Source of the DNA: Candidatus Uhrbacteria bacterium RIFCSPLOWO2_01_FULL_47_17
Lineage (GTDB): Bacteria; Patescibacteriota; Patescibacteriia; UBA9934; GWF2-40-263
Assembly (NCBI GenBank): GCA_001791305.1
Contig: MGEI01000005.1
Location: 146,698-210,697, forward strand
Direction of reading: 5' to 3'
DNA length: 64,000 bases
Numbering within the stretch: the stretch's first letter is position 1; every line of letters begins with the position of its first letter. Position numbers and translations under genes: made by a program. A model generated the notes under the pieces. That model made no database searches. It was not told the DNA's origin and worked only from the letters and a program-made list of their open reading frames with translations. Of this stretch, positions 8,266-40,641 are shown piece after piece.

Positions 8266-8396
8266 GGGTTGGCAAAGTTTGCAAGGTTGGCGAAAAAAAC
8301 TTTGGATTATCATCCGGAGTTTTTTGTTTCGTGATATAATTTCATCAATGAATTTTTTTCATGCAAACTTTGCCAACCTTGCAAACCTCGCCAACC
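8266..8396. promoter_or_regulatory. two inverted arrays of 9-bp repeats (GGTTGGCAA AGTTTGCAA GGTTGGCGA ... rc) flanking an extended -10 box (tgatataat, about 8330-8338) upstream of the second PfkB gene
   Basis: array 8266-8292 and inverted array 8362-8396; the same 9-mers recur at 26871-26960. Confidence 0.5.
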
Positions 8397-8402
8397 CAAA
8401 TT

Positions 8403-16562: not shown

Positions 16563-16868
16563 AATGTAAACTTGCTGTTCTCACGAACAACAATTGAAGA
16601 TCAACAGAACTTATTCTAAACCTAATTTTTTCTGGTACGTGCGTACTCTGTGAACTCTCTTATGCAAGAGAGGTTGTAGAGCTCGACCTATTAGTACTGC
16701 TCGGCTGAACATCTTACGATGCTTACACCTACAGCCTATCAACCTGCTAGTCTCGCAGGGGTCTCAAATGAAGACTTATCTTTGGATCGGCTTCACGCTT
16801 AGATGCTTTCAGCGTTTATCCGAACCGAACGTAGCTACCCAGCGATGCCCTTGGCAGGACAACTGGTG

Positions 16869-16908
<40 letters not shown>

Positions 16909-16944
16909 TGGATTCCATCAATCTTCGACGCCCATGGTAGATAG

Positions 16945-16996
<52 letters not shown>

Positions 16997-17027
16997 TGGC
17001 GAACAGCCAAACCCTTGGGACCTTCTA

Positions 17028-17063
<36 letters not shown>

Positions 17064-17604
17064 GAACCACGCCGTCGCTGTGGACGCTTGGGCGTGACTA
17101 GCCTGTTATCCCCGGAGTAGCTTTTATCCGATGAGCTTCCGCCGTCCTATTTCGTACGGTCGGATCACTAACTTCTGCTTTCGCAACTGCGCGACTTGTA
17201 AGTCTTGCAGTAAAGCTGGCTTCTGCGTTTGCACGTCCAGCGCGATTTCCATCCGCGCCAAGCCAACCTTTGTAAACGCCTCCGTTACATTTTGGGAGGC
17301 ACCCGCCCCAGGTAAACTACCCACCAGATCCTGTCCCTCCCTCCGGTTTCACGGAAGGTGGTTAGACTTTACACAACGCAAGGGTGGTATCTCACTGGTG
17401 CCCGAAGGCTCCCACCTATTCTGAACATGCGGAACATAAAATCAAGACCAAGTTGTAGTAAAGCTTCACGGGGTCTTTTCGTCTTACCACGGGAAGTGAG
17501 CATCTTCACTCACATTGCAATTTCGCCGAGTACATTGTTGAGAGAGTCTCCAAGTCGTTATGCCATTCGTGCAGGACGGAACTTACCCGTCAAGGAATTT
17601 CGCT

Positions 17605-18330
17605 CTTTGTTGTTACGATCCATTGATCGACGTAGTCATTTCTGCCACGTTCTGCATGTCACCATGCAGGTCGGACTCTATCTTCTTCGAAGGTTTCGAA
17701 GTCTGGCGTATAGTCTCTGAGGATTCCAGAAATTTTGATGGAACTTTTCGATTCATCAATTGGATAATCTTTGCAATTTCTTTCTGACCTTGATGATTCT
17801 TGTGCGTTCCTTCCTTCATCATTTGAAGGAGCTGAGCAAAGAGTTCAAAATCATTTTTCTTTGAAGTTTGCAAAGAGTATTTTTGGAAGAACGGAATAAT
17901 CTTCTCTCGAAGATCTTCTTGCGATCTTACACAATACTTTAGCAATGGTTCTCTGTGATTATCATGACGAGTGTTCTGATAAATCTGACCGCATCCGAAA
18001 TACTCACGAATGAGTTCCAGACTTGATCGACTTTTCATACCTTGTGTCACAACAAACTCAGGAAACACCTGCCATCCAAGGCTTGTGGTTTTGTTTCGAA
18101 TCAAACTGACTGAGAAGCAACCCTCTCCGTCAACAAATCCGCAAATCCACCACGCCATTTCTAGTCTTTCCTGCTGATTGTCTCGTTTTTTTATCATACT
18201 ATGGTTATATTTTACCATAGAGTGAACGAGGTGTTCCAGCATATAGCCAAATTTTTCTTTATCTACGTCTGTGAGGCATCACAGTTCGATAATGAGAGGT
18301 CATTCACCTCACTAAGGCAGCTTTTATTTC
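17605..18330 (-). mobile_element. 23S rRNA intron (likely group I) in domain IV, inserted within the conserved CCUAAGGU^AGCGAAAUUCC sequence, carrying a LAGLIDADG homing-endonuclease ORF
   Basis: 23S similarity breaks after ...caaggaatttcgct (17604) and resumes at accttaggacgattatagtt (18331); about 726 nt in between. Confidence 0.7.
17613..18242 (-). CDS. LAGLIDADG homing endonuclease (intron-encoded)
   Basis: WICGFVDGEGCFSVS motif (LAGLIDADG variant), 209 aa, entirely inside the 23S intron. Confidence 0.75.
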   Translation of the reverse strand: MLEHLVHSMVKYNHSMIKKRDNQQERLEMAWWICGFVDGEGCFSVSLIRNKTTSLGWQVFPEFVVTQGMKSRSSLELIREYFGCGQIYQNTRHDNHREPLLKYCVRSQEDLREKIIPFFQKYSLQTSKKNDFELFAQLLQMMKEGTHKNHQGQKEIAKIIQLMNRKVPSKFLESSETIRQTSKPSKKIESDLHGDMQNVAEMTTSINGS

Positions 18331-19182
18331 ACCTTAGGACGATTATAGTTATCGCCGGCGTTCATCCGCGCTTCAGTCGAAAGCTTTGACCCCGAAGGAT
18401 CTAACCCCCTTCCTTAACGTTCGGACACTGGCCAGGCATCAGCCCCTATACTTCACTTTGCAGTTTTGCAGGGACCTGTGTTTTTGGTAAACAGTCGCTT
18501 GGAGTCTTTCGCTGCGGGTCGCCCCCTCACAGGGGCAACCAGGCCTTATCCCGAAGTTACGGCCGTTGTTTTGCCGAGTTCCTAAACAATGTTTCTCTCG
18601 TACGCCTTAGTGCATTACGCACCCACTCACCTGTGTCGGTTTACGGTACGGGTCTCTATCACATTAGCCTTAGCGGCTTTTCTTGGCTCCGTGTTCTTTC
18701 CCCTTGTTTCCTGTTGCCAGAAAACTTGCGATCATATTCGTGCTCTGGATTAAACCAAGCGTGGTGGATTTGCCTGCCACGCGCCTAAATACGCCCAACG
18801 TCATAGCCATAGGACGCGGGAAATTTCACGAAGCGTCCCCGCTTCAGTGTGATAAAAAGTGCAGGAATATTAACCTGCTATGCATCGACTACGCCTTTCA
18901 GCCTCGCCTTAGCACCCGACTAACCCTGGGACGATTTGCGTTGCCCAGGAACCCTTAAGTTTACGGCGGACGGGGTTCTCACCCGTCTTTTTGCTACTCA
19001 TGCCAACATTCTCCCTTCGCATCGCTCCACCATGGGTCACCCCTTTGGCTTCAGCGCAATACGAATGCTCTCCTACCGCTTAACATTTAAAAATGTTAAA
19101 CCCTCAGCTTCGGCACATCATTTAGCCCCGGTACATTTTCGGCGCAGAAAAACTTGACCAGTGAGCTATTACGCTATCTTTA

Positions 19183-19213
<31 letters not shown>

Positions 19214-19792
19214 TTGTTTAAGTCTTTCCACCACCTTTTACACTTAATGATGATTTTGGGGCCTTAGCTTGAGATCTGGGCTGTTTCCCTTTCGACGTAT
19301 GGAGCTTAGCCCCCATCGTCTGACTGCCGGGAACACATGTTGGTATTCGGAGTTTGATTAGAGTCGCTACCCGAAGGCGCAAACTCGATTCAGTGCTCTA
19401 CCCCCAACACATTATTTACCGACGCTAGCCCAAAAGCTATCTCGGAGAGAACCAGCTATTACCGAGTTCGATTGGAATTTCTCCGCTATCCACAACTCAT
19501 CCCCGTGTTTTGCACGGCACGTGGGTTCGGCCCTCCACGAACTGTTACATTCGCTTCAGCCTGGTCATGGATAGGTCACCCGGTTTCGGGTTATGTGCGC
19601 GCCACCAATATTTCGCGGATTAACGCTCGCTTTCACTATGGCTTCGTCCCGGAGGACTTAACCAAGCGACGCACAACACACTCGTTGGCTCATTCTTCAA
19701 TAGGAACGCCATGACCCACTCTCCGCCTTGCGGCTTCGAGGGGCGCTGACTCCTTGTAAGTATACGATTTCAGATACTATTTCATTCCCCTT

Positions 19793-19826
<34 letters not shown>

Positions 19827-21094
19827 GTACACTATCGATCAGAACATGTATTTAGCTTTGCCAGATAGTCCCGGCAGATTCCTACAGGATTTCACGAGTC
19901 CCGTAGTACTCAAGAACAGTAATCATAATGACGTAATATATTTCGCGTACAGGACTTTCACCTTCTATGGTGTGACGTTCCAGTCACTTCCCCTATATAT
20001 TACATGGATTTCATTATCCGTTTTTTGAAGAAAACGACACTACCGTCTTACAACACCTATCTCTCGCAACGACTTCAATCTTTCGCATCCATTCACACAC
20101 AGTCTTGCGACTCCATGCTTACAAACACTTCACGAGAGAGGTTTGAGCTGTTCCCTTTTCGCTCGCCACTACTAAGGGAATCTATTCGTTTCGCGTTTCC
20201 ATACGACGTGCTGTCGGGTAAACCCGACTGGCCGCATGAAAACGTTAAACGAAATTGTTTTTTCTTTTCCTCTGGCTACTGAGATGTTTCACTTCACCAG
20301 GTGCCCTCCTTGCAACTATGTATTGATTGCAAAGTAATGCGGTATGAACCGCATTGGGTTGCCCCATTCGGATATCTTCGGATCAAAGGTTGTTTGCCAC
20401 CTCCCCGAAGCTTTTCGCAGGCTACTACGTCCTTCGTCGGCATGTTCTGTCAAGCCATCCTTCGTATACTCTTATTAATATGCTCTACAACCACTCTTAT
20501 TTAAGAGTGGTTCACTTCTTTGTGGTTTCTCTAATTCTGTTGATCTTCAATTGTAATGTTCGTGCGACCCTTGAAGGGTTTACCGAAATCTGTTTGATTC
20601 AAGGATCTGTTCTGGCCTTGAGGCCAGAGCTGAGCTACGACGCGAGAGTCGGAACTCAGCTCTAGGCACAAGAGACAAAGTGATGGAGTGGTTGAGTGGT
20701 GGAGTGAAGGTACTTGGCTTTTTGTTGAGAAGACACTATAAAACCGCCTTGTGGGCGGTCTTCAAGCAACAAAATTGTTACGATGAAGATCGTCCCTTAT
20801 ATTTGGTTTGCGTTACATGTGAACATATCCCCTTGTTCTCCGTAAGCTCCTTCTCCTCTCCATCCCATCAGCGGACCCATCTTCATGTGGGTCGATCAGC
20901 CAGATTATTCTTGGGACAAAGAAGAAGAAACGTATTCGATTTAAGTGGTGGAAGTTTAACGGAAGCCGAAAAGACTGTCAAGGGAATTTGTCCCAATTGT
21001 TTCCACAGGCATGTTTAACGATTTTATCTTGACAAAACCCCCATTTTCCGCTATGATTGTCTGATCCAAACGTTGGATCAACCAAGGAGGAGAG

Positions 21095-29629: not shown

Positions 29630-29710
29630 CGCTTCCGCTGGAAGCGTTTTTTCTTTCCCAATTGAAAAATCTGAGCGTGTCGCGTACACTCGAAGCACAA
29701 ACGAACGAAT

Positions 29711-29837
29711 GATGAAACTTCCAAAATTGGTGCCTCGCGCCGTGCTGGAGGCAAAAAGATCGTGAGAGGTATCCTAAAATACCTCGAACAATTTTTTGCC
29801 GAAGCGCAAGCGAGGCGCCGATTTTGGAAGTTTCATC
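29711..29837 (+). other. structured leader: 28-bp inverted repeat (gatgaaacttccaaaattggtgcctcgc ... gcgaggcgccgattttggaagtttcatc) enclosing a structured loop of about 70 nt, ending 1 nt before tRNA-Leu(TAG)
   Basis: arms are near-perfect reverse complements; the same core IR (AAACTTCCAAAATTGG/CCGATTTTGGAAGTTT) precedes tRNA-Leu(TAA) at 39697-39822. Confidence 0.45.
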
Positions 29838-29922
29838 GCGAGCGTGGCGGAATTGGTATACGCACTAGCCTTAGGAGCTAGCGGAGCAATCCATGAGAGT
29901 TCGAGTCTCTCCGCTCGCACCA
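29838..29922 (+). tRNA. tRNA-Leu (anticodon TAG)
   Basis: GCGAGCGTGGCGGAATTGGTATACGCACTAGCCTTAGGAGCTAGCGGAGCAATCCATGAGAGTTCGAGTCTCTCCGCTCGCACCA; long variable arm, 3-bp D stem. Confidence 0.9.
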
Positions 29923-30125
29923 AAAAATCAGAACTGAAAAAATTATCCACACACCCACCATTGACAACAACAAAATTTTTTGATGAAATGTTTATACAAG
30001 AAATAAGAACTCCTAGATTGATCATATTCATCTGGGAGTTCTTTTTTGTTTCCAAAAAATGGAAACACGATCTGATCCATCGTCTTCACGTGCGCCGCGT
30101 GTTCATTCATTTTCATTCTGACCCT

Positions 30126-38938: not shown

Positions 38939-39676
38939 ATGCCCTCTCCTCTTCAAAAAATTGAATTGGCCTTGTGTGGACTTGCGATTGACGATCCAAA
39001 GTACAAAGCCTTTCGTCAGAAAACCACCAAACTGCGCGTGCTTGGCATTCGCGTGCCAGTACTTCAGAAATTAGTCTGCGACGGATTTCAGTTTTACAAC
39101 AAAACCGAAAAAGATATTTTGCATGTATGGAATGGCGTGTGGAACACAAGTCGCATGCACGAAGCGATGTATCTGCCATTGTTTTATTATCGCAACCACA
39201 AACACGTACTCGGCACATACGAATGGCACGTCATAAAAAAGTGGATTGACCGCGTGGAAAACTGGGAGCATGCGGATGCGCTTGCATACCTCTATTCCAT
39301 TTTGCTTGAACGCTATCCAAAACTCATTTTGCCGACACTCAAAAAATGGAATCGTTCGAACAATCCGTGGAAACAACGCATCTCGATTGTGTCTCTCATT
39401 TATTACGCCTCCAAAAACCGCAAAGCCCCGCCGGTTGGCCTTGTACTCAAAATGGTCGAACCCCTGATTCCGTCGAAAGACCCCTATGTGCGCAAGGCAG
39501 TCGGATGGACGCTGCGTGAAAGTTACAAGCTGTATCCAAAAGAAACGTTTGCGTTTCTAAAAAAGCACATCCAAGAATTAGCGGCCGTGAGTTTTTCGTA
39601 TGCGACAGAGCGAGTGACAAAGGAGCAGAAGACGGAGTTGAAACGAATGCGATCTCGACAAAAATCCAAATTCTGA
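38939..39676 (+). CDS. DNA alkylation repair protein (AlkC/AlkD-like HEAT-repeat glycosylase family)
   Basis: length and repeat pattern (WxxxRxxxL, VRKAVGWTLRE) typical of the DNA_alkylation family. Confidence 0.55.
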   Translation: MPSPLQKIELALCGLAIDDPKYKAFRQKTTKLRVLGIRVPVLQKLVCDGFQFYNKTEKDILHVWNGVWNTSRMHEAMYLPLFYYRNHKHVLGTYEWHVIKKWIDRVENWEHADALAYLYSILLERYPKLILPTLKKWNRSNNPWKQRISIVSLIYYASKNRKAPPVGLVLKMVEPLIPSKDPYVRKAVGWTLRESYKLYPKETFAFLKKHIQELAAVSFSYATERVTKEQKTELKRMRSRQKSKF

Positions 39677-39696
39677 TAATCTACAGCCCGTGCGTG

Positions 39697-39823
39697 CTAA
39701 AACTTTCCAAATTGGATGCAAAATTGTTGTGTTGCGAGCACCGCAAGTGAGCTGTACACGGAAGTACAGCGAACGCGGAGCACAGCGACACAACAATTTG
39801 GCGCCGATTTGGGAAGTTTTAGC
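39697..39823 (+). other. structured leader: inverted repeat ctaaaactttccaaattgg ... ccgatttgggaagttttag enclosing a nested-hairpin loop of about 90 nt, ending at the 5' end of tRNA-Leu(TAA)
   Basis: same IR core and same placement as 29711-29837. Confidence 0.45.
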
Positions 39824-39909
39824 GGGACAGTGGCGGAATGGTATACGCTCGACACTTAAAATGTCGTCTGGGAAACCGGGTGCGGGTTCGAGTCCCGCCT
39901 GTCCCACCA
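39824..39909 (+). tRNA. tRNA-Leu (anticodon TAA)
   Basis: GGGACAGTGGCGGAATGGTATACGCTCGACACTTAAAATGTCGTCTGGGAAACCGGGTGCGGGTTCGAGTCCCGCCTGTCCCACCA. Confidence 0.9.
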
Positions 39910-39910
39910 T

Positions 39911-39950
39911 CCTACGCTCTGGCTGTTTTCTATATCCAGAGCGTAGGATG
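39911..39950 (+). terminator. hairpin cctacgctctgg...ccagagcgtagg after the tRNA
   Basis: 12-bp perfect stem. Confidence 0.5.
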
Positions 39951-40116
39951 CCCTTCGAAGCTTTAGCGAAGAACGGGCGCATTGTGTCGCCAGAGCTTCG
40001 GATGGCAAGTCAAAAAAGAATCACGATGTGATTCTTTTTTGTTTGACCATCAACCATTGACAATCTTTCGCAGAAACTTTAAGGTCTCGATAGGCAAGAA
40101 ACAAAAGGAGTCTTTC

Positions 40117-40374
40117 ATGACCATCGCTGTTGAAGCCACTCGTCCGTTTCATGAATCGATCATCGACGTCCTCCCAATTGCAAACGGCTCCCAACTCACC
40201 ATCTTGGCCGATCTCATCAAGCGAACAGCCATTCCCAAAAACCACGACGCGATCATTGCGGCGTGGACACGTCGCACGCTCGACATGCACAGCCCGGACT
40301 ATGGCGTTTCCGAATACCTTCAGCGCCAAAAAGAACAGGCTGCGTTTACCGCACGGATCACGACCGGATGCTAA
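40117..40374 (+). CDS. small protein (85 aa), tandem paralog 1 of an unknown family (conserved NHDAI(I/L)AAW..RT)
   Basis: RBS aaaaggag; paralogous to 40384..40641. Confidence 0.5.
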   Translation: MTIAVEATRPFHESIIDVLPIANGSQLTILADLIKRTAIPKNHDAIIAAWTRRTLDMHSPDYGVSEYLQRQKEQAAFTARITTGC

Positions 40375-40383
40375 GGAGGCATC

Positions 40384-40641
40384 ATGAGTGGATTTCTCTT
40401 TTCGCAACCGTTTGAAGATTCGATCGTTGAATCAATAAGCACCGCAGATCGCGCAGAACTCGAATGTCTTGCACGACTCATCACACGCACGCGCATCACG
40501 CGCAACCACGACGCAATCTTGGCTGCATGGATCACCCGAACACGTTTTTTCTCTGTTTCCGACTTGGGTGTCACGGATCACATCGTTCGACAACGTTCCT
40601 ACACAGAACAATCTTCTTTGACCCGTCAACCTGAACGCTGA
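40384..40641 (+). CDS. small protein (85 aa), tandem paralog 2
   Basis: RBS aaggagg; [27 protein letters not shown] vs LADLIKRTAIPKNHDAIIAAWTRRTLD; terminator hairpin follows at about 40630-40660. Confidence 0.5.

Follow-up and report, generated by a model that had tools for sequence, protein, structure and literature searches.

A family of covarying hairpin repeats and its copy next to tRNA-Leu(TAA) in a Candidatus Uhrbacteria genome

The hairpins and their tRNA transcription units

The stretch of Candidatus Uhrbacteria DNA analysed here (64 kb, referred to as the window) carries a tRNA-Leu(TAA) gene between alkD and ruvB, and a long inverted repeat, copy 2, lies directly upstream of this tRNA. 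A related repeat, copy 1, precedes tRNA-Leu(TAG) about 10 kb away. One protein encoded in the flank is 100% identical to a protein of Candidatus Uhrbacteria bacterium RIFCSPHIGHO2_02_FULL_47_44 from the Rifle aquifer, a member of the candidate phyla radiation. The relevant features are as follows.

29662–29690, + strand: promoter of copy 1, TTGAAA-17-TACACT, conserved in the orthologous loci L191, L222 and L225
29711–29837, + strand: copy 1 of the hairpin repeat, 127 nt, of another subfamily than copy 2 (covariance model, 95 bits)
39655–39682, + strand: probable promoter of the hairpin-tRNA transcript, TCGACA (39655–39660), 16-nt spacer, TAATCT (39677–39682)
39696–39823, + strand: copy 2 of the hairpin repeat, 128 nt (fold; covariance model, 88.3 bits, E = 1e-18)
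39698–39716 and 39804–39822, + strand: outer arms of copy 2, ctaaaactttccaaattgg / ccgatttgggaagttttag
39698–39716, + strand: family-conserved 5' arm, AAACTTyCAAAATTGG followed by the bulged A of GAUG (alignments)
39720–39737 and 39787–39802, + strand: inner stem of copy 2, caaaattgttgtgttgcg / cgacacaacaatttgg
39750–39777, + strand: apical module, with GUGA, a 7-bp stem (39754–39760/39767–39773), the loop ACGGAA and GAAC
39755–39760 and 39767–39772, + strand: apical ctgtac/gtacag hairpin of copy 2
39801–39822, + strand: family-conserved 3' arm, CGCCrATTTTGGAAG plus a variable outer stem (arm search, alignments)
39824–39909, + strand: tRNA-Leu(TAA), CCA encoded (ARAGORN, Rfam), identical in the relative L218
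39909–40041, + strand: structured 3' trailer of tRNA-Leu(TAA), with hairpins at 39909–39950 and 39951–40012
40013–40041, + strand: intrinsic terminator closing the tRNA-Leu(TAA) unit

A sequence-only reading of the region 39697–39909 had described three nested inverted repeats, and all three were found where it had placed them, with arms that pair in the predicted fold. RNAfold gives copy 2 as one hairpin from G39696 to C39823 with a free energy of −76.7 kcal/mol, compared with −79 kcal/mol for copy 1. Dinucleotide shuffles of copy 2 averaged −31.8 ± 3.3 kcal/mol (z = −13.4), and none of 200 was as stable. The hairpin consists of a 20-bp basal stem, the bulged A39716, a U39717·G39803 wobble, a long middle stem and the apical hairpin, where two GA dinucleotides can, by their sequence, form tandem G·A pairs beneath a covarying stem. 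When copy 2 was folded jointly with the tRNA, the hairpin and the cloverleaf each formed, side by side. Because of G·U pairs, the + strand folds better than the − strand in both copies, by 14 kcal/mol in copy 2 and by 9 kcal/mol in copy 1. The identical copy 2 sequence is found in at least five independent assemblies, which argues against an assembly artefact. Misassembly can create palindromes, and nothing beyond that speaks for an artefact or a chance inverted repeat; against the z-score of the fold, the agreement of independent assemblies and the covarying homologs across many genomes, such an origin is negligible.

With tRNA-Leu(TAA) placed at 39824–39909, the last paired base of the hairpin, C39823, is position −1, in agreement with the earlier claim that the element ends at the tRNA 5' end. 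The putative promoter TCGACA-16-TAATCT overlaps the alkD stop codon (39674–39676) and ends 13 nt upstream of copy 2. In L218, the promoter TGGACA-16-TATTCT lies 9 nt before the identical tRNA-Leu(TAA), and approximately 19 of 28 positions are equal between the two. Copy 2 therefore lies between this putative promoter and the tRNA, and we infer that hairpin and tRNA are co-transcribed, as the assignment of copy 2 to the leader had implied. A consensus promoter scan additionally gave TTGAAA-16-AAAAAT at 39638–39665. On the 3' side, the trailer is kept in L218 (3454–3612) with five compensatory pairs; its hairpins had no Rfam match. Two adjacent 85-aa ORFs without Pfam matches lie further downstream, between tRNA-Leu(TAA) and ruvB (40130–40641), and the relatives have small ORFs of similar size at this place.

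Transcription from TCGACA-16-TAATCT would yield one precursor made of a short 5' tail, the 128-nt hairpin, tRNA-Leu(TAA), the structured trailer and the terminator. RNase P would then have to cut between C39823 and G39824, at the foot of a continuous helix. Since the perfect 20-bp basal duplex of copy 2 is the type of substrate recognized by RNase III, this enzyme probably cuts there first, and the leader would be removed in two steps by RNase III and RNase P, by analogy with rRNA-operon stems and Correia/ERIC repeats.

Copy 1 abuts tRNA-Leu(TAG) (29838–29922) just as copy 2 abuts its tRNA. The two copies have in common the arms, the apical GUGA-stem-GAAC module with its tandem-GA motif and the flush tRNA placement, which supports the view that copy 2 is a second instance of the element at 29711–29837, and they differ in between, with 36% identity in the central region. 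The arm GCGCCGATTTkGGAAGTTT occurs only at these two copies within the window, with 0.03 occurrences expected. A check for compensatory change, which the sequence-only reading had proposed, showed that 10 of 40 consensus pairs are changed on both sides between the copies and stay paired. Copy 1 and its promoter were found before tRNA-Leu(TAG) in all four species located via the flanking protein (58–62% identity), with 5–6 compensatory changes per distant pair; between copy 1 and one ortholog, 7 of 51 pairs are compensatory, 3 one-sided and 3 broken. Retention of copy 1 across four species, with only about 60% identity in the flanking protein, points to a host function at tRNA-Leu(TAG), and, judged by these orthologous loci, only the tRNA-Leu(TAG) copy of the two behaves as a conserved leader. 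The ortholog in L225 (2964–3165) has a 70-nt insertion in its 3' half, which adds two small branches and leaves the remaining hairpin intact. On the 3' side of tRNA-Leu(TAG), the segment 29923–30050 contains a strong terminator hairpin (about 30013–30048) as well as a box similar to TTGACA, which suggests either a structured trailer or a short transcript of its own.

Presence and absence of copy 2 in relatives

Through alkD homologs, the orthologous alkD-tRNA-Leu(TAA)-ruvB locus was located in three relatives (L218, L220 and L221). The tRNA is present in all three, and the covariance model found no element at this locus in any of them. In L218, alkD is 82% identical, tRNA-Leu(TAA) and the start of its trailer are 100% identical, and the leader has a length of 9 nt. 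A plain leader without the element also precedes tRNA-Leu(TAA) in a Kaiserbacteria genome (L185) that carries other copies. In L220 (2891–3364) and L221 (2559–3032), an HNH_3 endonuclease gene stops 2–3 nt before tRNA-Leu(TAA). As this gene sits exactly where the hairpin does, the site has the look of a hotspot for insertions. The upstream spacer also differs between the window and L218, which blurs the left boundary of copy 2. The comparison of these loci is best explained by a lineage-specific acquisition of copy 2 in the source Candidatus Uhrbacteria, and the simplest view of copy 2 is that of a passenger which the tRNA-Leu(TAA) precursor has gained recently. The description of the element as a tRNA-Leu leader structure thus holds as far as a stable hairpin in the leader is concerned. 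The implied specificity for tRNA-Leu does not hold, since the element also accompanies tRNA-Ala, tRNA-Lys and the 3' ends of genes, and copy 2 is missing in three relatives, one of which has a 100% identical tRNA.

Covariation, placement and polarity of the repeat family

To delineate the family, species-representative genomes were scanned with a two-arm pattern in degenerate codes, a loose search that gave at least 118 matches, of which about 10 were real, and that missed some genomes. True hairpins were found in Uhrbacteria, in two Kaiserbacteria genomes (on three contigs of one) and in three MAGs labelled Gammaproteobacteria (two) and Saccharibacteria (one). A stricter pattern gave 14 metagenome loci and no viral locus, and one-arm and two-arm patterns on viral contigs gave chance matches or none. 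A covariance model built from 20 copies found further copies, independently of the pattern, in the flanks of six loci. In the window, the model recovered the two known copies and a weak third match at 8268–8393 (20.8 bits), which is an unrelated 26-bp inverted repeat and not a family member. That repeat (8268–8397, GGTTGGCGAGGTTTGCAAGGTTGGC... / ...GCCAACCTTGCAAACTTTGCCAACC) is perfect, lies between two + strand ORFs and encloses about 75 nt with a terminator-like hairpin (−62 kcal/mol, z = −9).

In total, the family comprises about 26 copies at 17 non-redundant loci from Uhrbacteria, Kaiserbacteria and related metagenome contigs, with an element length of about 125–130 nt and a density of roughly one copy per 20–30 kb of examined sequence. 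One Kaiserbacteria genome has at least four copies in the fetched parts, and second copies lie within 1–4 kb at six loci. Rfam at gathering thresholds assigned no family to the hairpin, and at E ≤ 10 it returned only generic miRNA-hairpin noise (30.5 bits versus a 140-bit cut-off). A blastn search (word size 11) against 5,426 E. coli genomes and BLAST searches against phage and plasmid collections gave no match to the element. TIGR arrays were ruled out as its identity, as they are tandem arrays. A literature search combining CPR, Patescibacteria or Parcubacteria with palindromic repeats, MITEs, hairpins, or inverted repeats and tRNA returned nothing relevant. On these comparisons, the hairpin family is a previously undescribed, well supported family of structured repeats of candidate-phyla-radiation (CPR) bacteria.

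When 24 distinct copies were aligned to the model, standard pairs made up 92.9% of the cells, and both partners had changed in 29 of 40 pairs (195 cells). Not one of 500 shuffles attained any of these measures, and sliding the partners lowered pairing to 36–48%. The terminal inverted repeats CTTyCAAAATTGG / CCrATTTTGGAAG are present in nearly all copies, which is partly imposed by the search pattern; the arms covary as well (UUGG/CCAA, UGAG/CUCA, UGGG/CCCA), and the copies found by the covariance model also covary in the terminal repeats. Invariant or nearly so are an AAAU/AUUU core, the bulged A with the U·G wobble (GAUG/CGC) and a purine-rich 3 × 3 loop, usually capable of tandem G·A pairing, beneath a covarying GUAC-type stem; one subfamily has a UGGA/GAA loop. 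Orthologous copies are 93% identical behind ndk and 98% identical behind rpsG, compared with 83–87% and 91%, respectively, for the adjacent coding DNA, and the differences between orthologous copies are mostly compensatory. These alignments demonstrate that strong constraint acts on pairing within one particular strand as the family evolves.

At least four old subfamilies can be distinguished, which coexist in one genome and are common to several genomes; subfamilies 1 and 3 occur mainly next to tRNAs, and two others mainly next to ORFs. Elements with 99% identity precede two different tRNA-Lys isoacceptors (CTT and TTT), and elements with 82% identity have unrelated flanks. At the first of the tRNA-Lys loci (L210, 99–366) a tandem element pair precedes tRNA-Lys(CTT), at the second (L213, 1145–1274) the 99%-identical element and a truncated 3' arm precede tRNA-Lys(TTT), and a 7-nt GACCTGC spacer lies before the tRNA in both. 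The near-identical copies, the tandem pair and the unrelated flanks can be read as signs of recent copying. No direct repeat of 2–8 nt at any boundary offset occurs in more than 5 of 21 copies; an IS630-type TA duplication was rejected, as it is found in only 5 of 21 copies and TA is palindromic. No transposase or integrase gene was seen in the 64-kb window or in the pieces of about 8 kb from the other genomes. Because neither a target duplication, nor a GTAG foot, nor a transposase or integrase was seen, the argument for mobility comes only from presence/absence and near-identical copies.

The neighbours of 26 copies were tabulated, and three copies fall outside the placement rule that emerged. 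In sense orientation, the element lies directly 5' of a tRNA at five independent loci (Leu-TAG, Leu-TAA, Ala-CGC, Lys-CTT and Lys-TTT), ending 0–7 nt before +1 in all five. In antisense orientation, its 3' end meets the CCA end of tRNA-His and of tRNA-Arg (two loci) and touches or overlaps the stop codon at twelve protein-gene loci, the genes for EF-G, L6, S2, S7, sigma-70, NDK, both ribonucleotide reductase subunits, DEAD-box helicases (three) and a protein of unknown function. Every tRNA-leader locus (5 of 5) thus has the element in sense, and every gene-3'-end locus (14 of 14) has it in antisense. On the 5' side of the element the next feature is 12–800 nt away, and at the antisense loci this side usually meets a terminator of the A-tract/hairpin/T-tract type within 0–35 nt, so that the reverse complement of the element lies between the stop codon of the neighbour gene and its terminator. 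The copies would thereby take up the little neutral sequence that gene boundaries offer, either after a promoter and before tRNA +1 or after a stop codon (or CCA end) and before a terminator. At one locus (L112) the element lies between rplF and the start of rplR/L18 (rplR read by eye), apparently inside a ribosomal-protein operon. The element is found in opposite orientations within 1 kb on one contig, indicating that its orientation does not follow replication. At three loci (L204, 3719–3854; L205, 4253–4385; L212, 8576–8706), the end of a DEAD-box helicase gene, a different one each time, falls within the outer stem of an element, and each of these elements is from another subfamily.

The more stable fold is on the same strand in all copies, by a margin of 9–34 kcal/mol. 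For the 14 copies behind protein genes, the folding strand has 80 G·U pairs and no A·C 1 × 1 mismatch, whereas the mRNA strand has 11 G·U pairs and 24 A·C mismatches (consensus counts, 66 versus 6). The strand under selection at gene 3' ends is therefore not the one that is evidently transcribed. Several explanations were considered and rejected. An internal promoter, or an own promoter for the antisense copies, has no consistent −35/−10 boxes, and terminators abut the 5' side. No intrinsic terminator or attenuator was called at either copy in the window, and a U tract after the stem is not conserved, the post-stem sequence being not U-rich in many copies (e.g., GCCCGACC, GGGUCUA). Replication-strand bias conflicts with the opposite orientations within 1 kb, and transcription-associated deamination would give the opposite wobble bias. 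As for a small peptide, the AUG in GGAUG opens unconserved ORFs of 5–15 codons, and the covariation is RNA-like. Judged in this way, neither an own promoter nor a terminator, a mutation bias or attC/REPIN-like substrates can explain the sense copies in tRNA leaders together with the antisense copies at 3' ends. A very stable hairpin may be harmful at a stop codon or CCA end, where only the weaker orientation would survive; this is a partial explanation, which is incomplete because it leaves the perfect pairing of the opposite strand unexplained.

Comparison with known elements and interpretation

REPINs are doublets of REP sequences that are mobilised by RAYT transposases (PMC3116915, PMC3337134, PMC3479197). 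The element resembles REP/BIME and REPIN sequences in being a dispersed, multi-copy extragenic imperfect palindrome of about 100 nt that forms long hairpins (PMC3116915, PMC3337134, PMC3479197). It also shares with them a location mainly just after genes, a long vertical persistence and strand-specific features thought to be read on single strands. In contrast to REP and REPIN sequences, the conserved GTAG foot occurs in only 1 of 21 non-redundant copies, and the arms are not short palindromes, with −7.5 to −16.5 kcal/mol for an arm alone and −61 to −74 kcal/mol for the whole. Unlike REPINs, the copies are far more divergent within a genome and belong to a CPR taxon. No RAYT gene was seen in the 64-kb window or in the pieces of about 8 kb from the other genomes.

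ERIC (IRU) sequences are imperfect palindromes of about 127 bp in enterobacteria, which lie in transcribed intergenic regions in either orientation and form RNA hairpins that affect transcript fate. The element is likewise an imperfect palindrome in transcribed intergenic regions, in either orientation and folding as RNA, but it has no similarity to any E. coli genome tested, and ERIC copies are much more uniform. We know of no report of ERIC sequences that directly abut tRNA +1. In Neisseria, Correia/NEMIS elements, like other MITEs, have terminal inverted repeats, are co-transcribed with their neighbours, form hairpins processed by RNase III and show presence/absence polymorphism. As in Correia/IS630-type MITEs, the terminal inverted repeats of the element are conserved, and L218, L220 and L221 have empty sites for copy 2; unlike them, the element has neither TA nor any other target-site duplication and is paired over its whole length, with pairing kept by compensatory change. 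Integron attC sites are hairpins of 57–141 nt with variable sequence, conserved structure and extrahelical bases, located at or after the stop codon. The element shares the extrahelical bases, the overlap with the stop codon and a folding strand complementary to the mRNA. Its outer stems, however, are yTRRRAC...GTYYYAr and not the RYYYAAC...GTTRRRY boxes, its neighbours are core genes (EF-G, ribosomal proteins, tRNAs) rather than cassettes, its copies are single or double and not in arrays, no intI was seen in the sequence at hand, and sense copies lie in tRNA leaders. The RNase III processing stems of rRNA and tRNA operons are long duplexes by a stable RNA in the precursor, which are removed in maturation; in contrast, the element is self-contained on the 5' side of the tRNA, does not enclose the mature RNA and belongs to a repeat family at unrelated genes. 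By this comparison, the element resembles REP, ERIC, Correia and REPIN sequences in kind, but departs from each in its defining features.

We therefore favour, with a probability of roughly 0.55, the reading that copy 2 is a REP/ERIC/REPIN-like structured repeat that is co-transcribed as the pre-tRNA leader and removed in maturation, rather than a regulator with specificity for leucine or tRNA-Leu. Like REP, ERIC, Correia and REPIN sequences, the element would be a self-folding passenger in the transcripts of highly expressed genes, and selection would keep its structure together with the non-Watson-Crick features (the bulged A with the U·G wobble, the UGGA/GAA loop and the tandem G·A pairs), probably for recognition by a protein. 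A passive passenger does not explain the orientation rule, which holds at 5 of 5 tRNA leaders and 14 of 14 gene 3' ends, and the perfect pairing of the non-mRNA strand at gene 3' ends also speaks against it. In a second reading, the hairpin would be a dedicated cis-acting tRNA leader, selected for its control of tRNA maturation or abundance; it might give RNase III an obligatory point of entry, protect the precursor as a 5' cap, or act as an attenuator through a protein bound to the conserved loops. The sense placement 0–7 nt before +1 at all five tRNA-leader loci, the tRNA linkage of most copies in subfamilies 1 and 3, and the tRNA-Leu(TAG) copy, kept with its promoter and 5–6 compensatory changes per pair in four species, agree with such a role. 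Yet copy 2 is absent in three relatives whose tRNA is the same or nearly so, where a plain leader of 2–9 nt or an upstream HNH gene takes its place, and at least 12 protein genes and two tRNAs have members of the same family in antisense at their 3' ends; we consider a dedicated leader unlikely, and a classical attenuator is excluded by the absence of a uridine tract after the stem.

The element could instead serve as a single-stranded DNA substrate of a structure-specific recombinase or transposase, as REPIN/RAYT, IS200/IS605 ends and attC do, and its presence in the pre-tRNA would be incidental. This would account for the finding that one and the same strand has the better fold in all copies, irrespective of the local direction of transcription, that an invariant bulged base and a wobble pair mark this strand, and that at gene 3' ends it resembles attC in being the complement of the mRNA and in overlapping the stop codon; the presence/absence polymorphism and the 99%-identical copies at two loci fit as well. 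Such a substrate is nevertheless improbable given that the element has neither GTAG nor RYYYAAC/GTTRRRY boxes, target duplications or arrays, that no recombinase gene was seen, that the flips of orientation within 1 kb leave it untied to replication direction, and that resident copies are conserved with compensatory changes, which selection for mobility alone would not lead one to expect. Least plausible among these functional roles, and very unlikely in our judgement, are trans-acting small structured RNAs, which RNase P would release from the precursor and which would go on to bind a protein or to base-pair, through their conserved arms, with complementary copies in 3' UTRs of translation-related mRNAs. 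The conserved arms (13–16 nt) are complementary to the copies in the mRNAs for EF-G, S2, S7, L6, sigma-70, RNR and DEAD-box helicases, and the non-Watson-Crick motifs are conserved, but the arms are already paired with each other in a highly stable stem, the copies not linked to tRNAs have no evident promoter and often a terminator at their 5' side, and the copies are highly divergent within one genome.

The preferred reading of a structured, co-transcribed repeat leaves room for a bolder proposal, which we put forward tentatively and regard as doubtful, namely that the family is a new class of strand-specific structured element marking the boundaries of highly expressed genes in CPR bacteria. 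Purifying selection on one strand extends to copies in which this strand runs antisense to the neighbouring mRNA and apparently lacks a promoter. If so, a pervasive set of hairpin RNAs, antisense or derived from tRNA leaders, would link tRNA transcription to the mRNAs of the translation apparatus; alternatively, the family would embody a domesticated function of single-stranded DNA with no described counterpart. Even as a selfish repeat only, it would be the first REP/ERIC-like family described for the CPR. Given that CPR genomes are about 1 Mb in size and tightly packed, a non-coding family of about 130 nt at dozens of gene boundaries is unexpected. With 29 covarying pairs, it adds a well-supported structured motif to a lineage that has almost no known non-coding RNAs, and such repeats can mislead the annotation of tRNA leaders in CPR genomes. 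The strict polarity, with the same end towards the gene and the folding strand antisense at 3' ends, poses a puzzle about the handling of tRNA and translation-gene transcripts.

Elsewhere in the window, which contains no 16S rRNA gene, a 5S rRNA gene follows a 23S rRNA match on the − strand (16670–20485). This match spans 3816 nt, compared with 2925 positions in the model, which implies approximately 0.9 kb of insertions.
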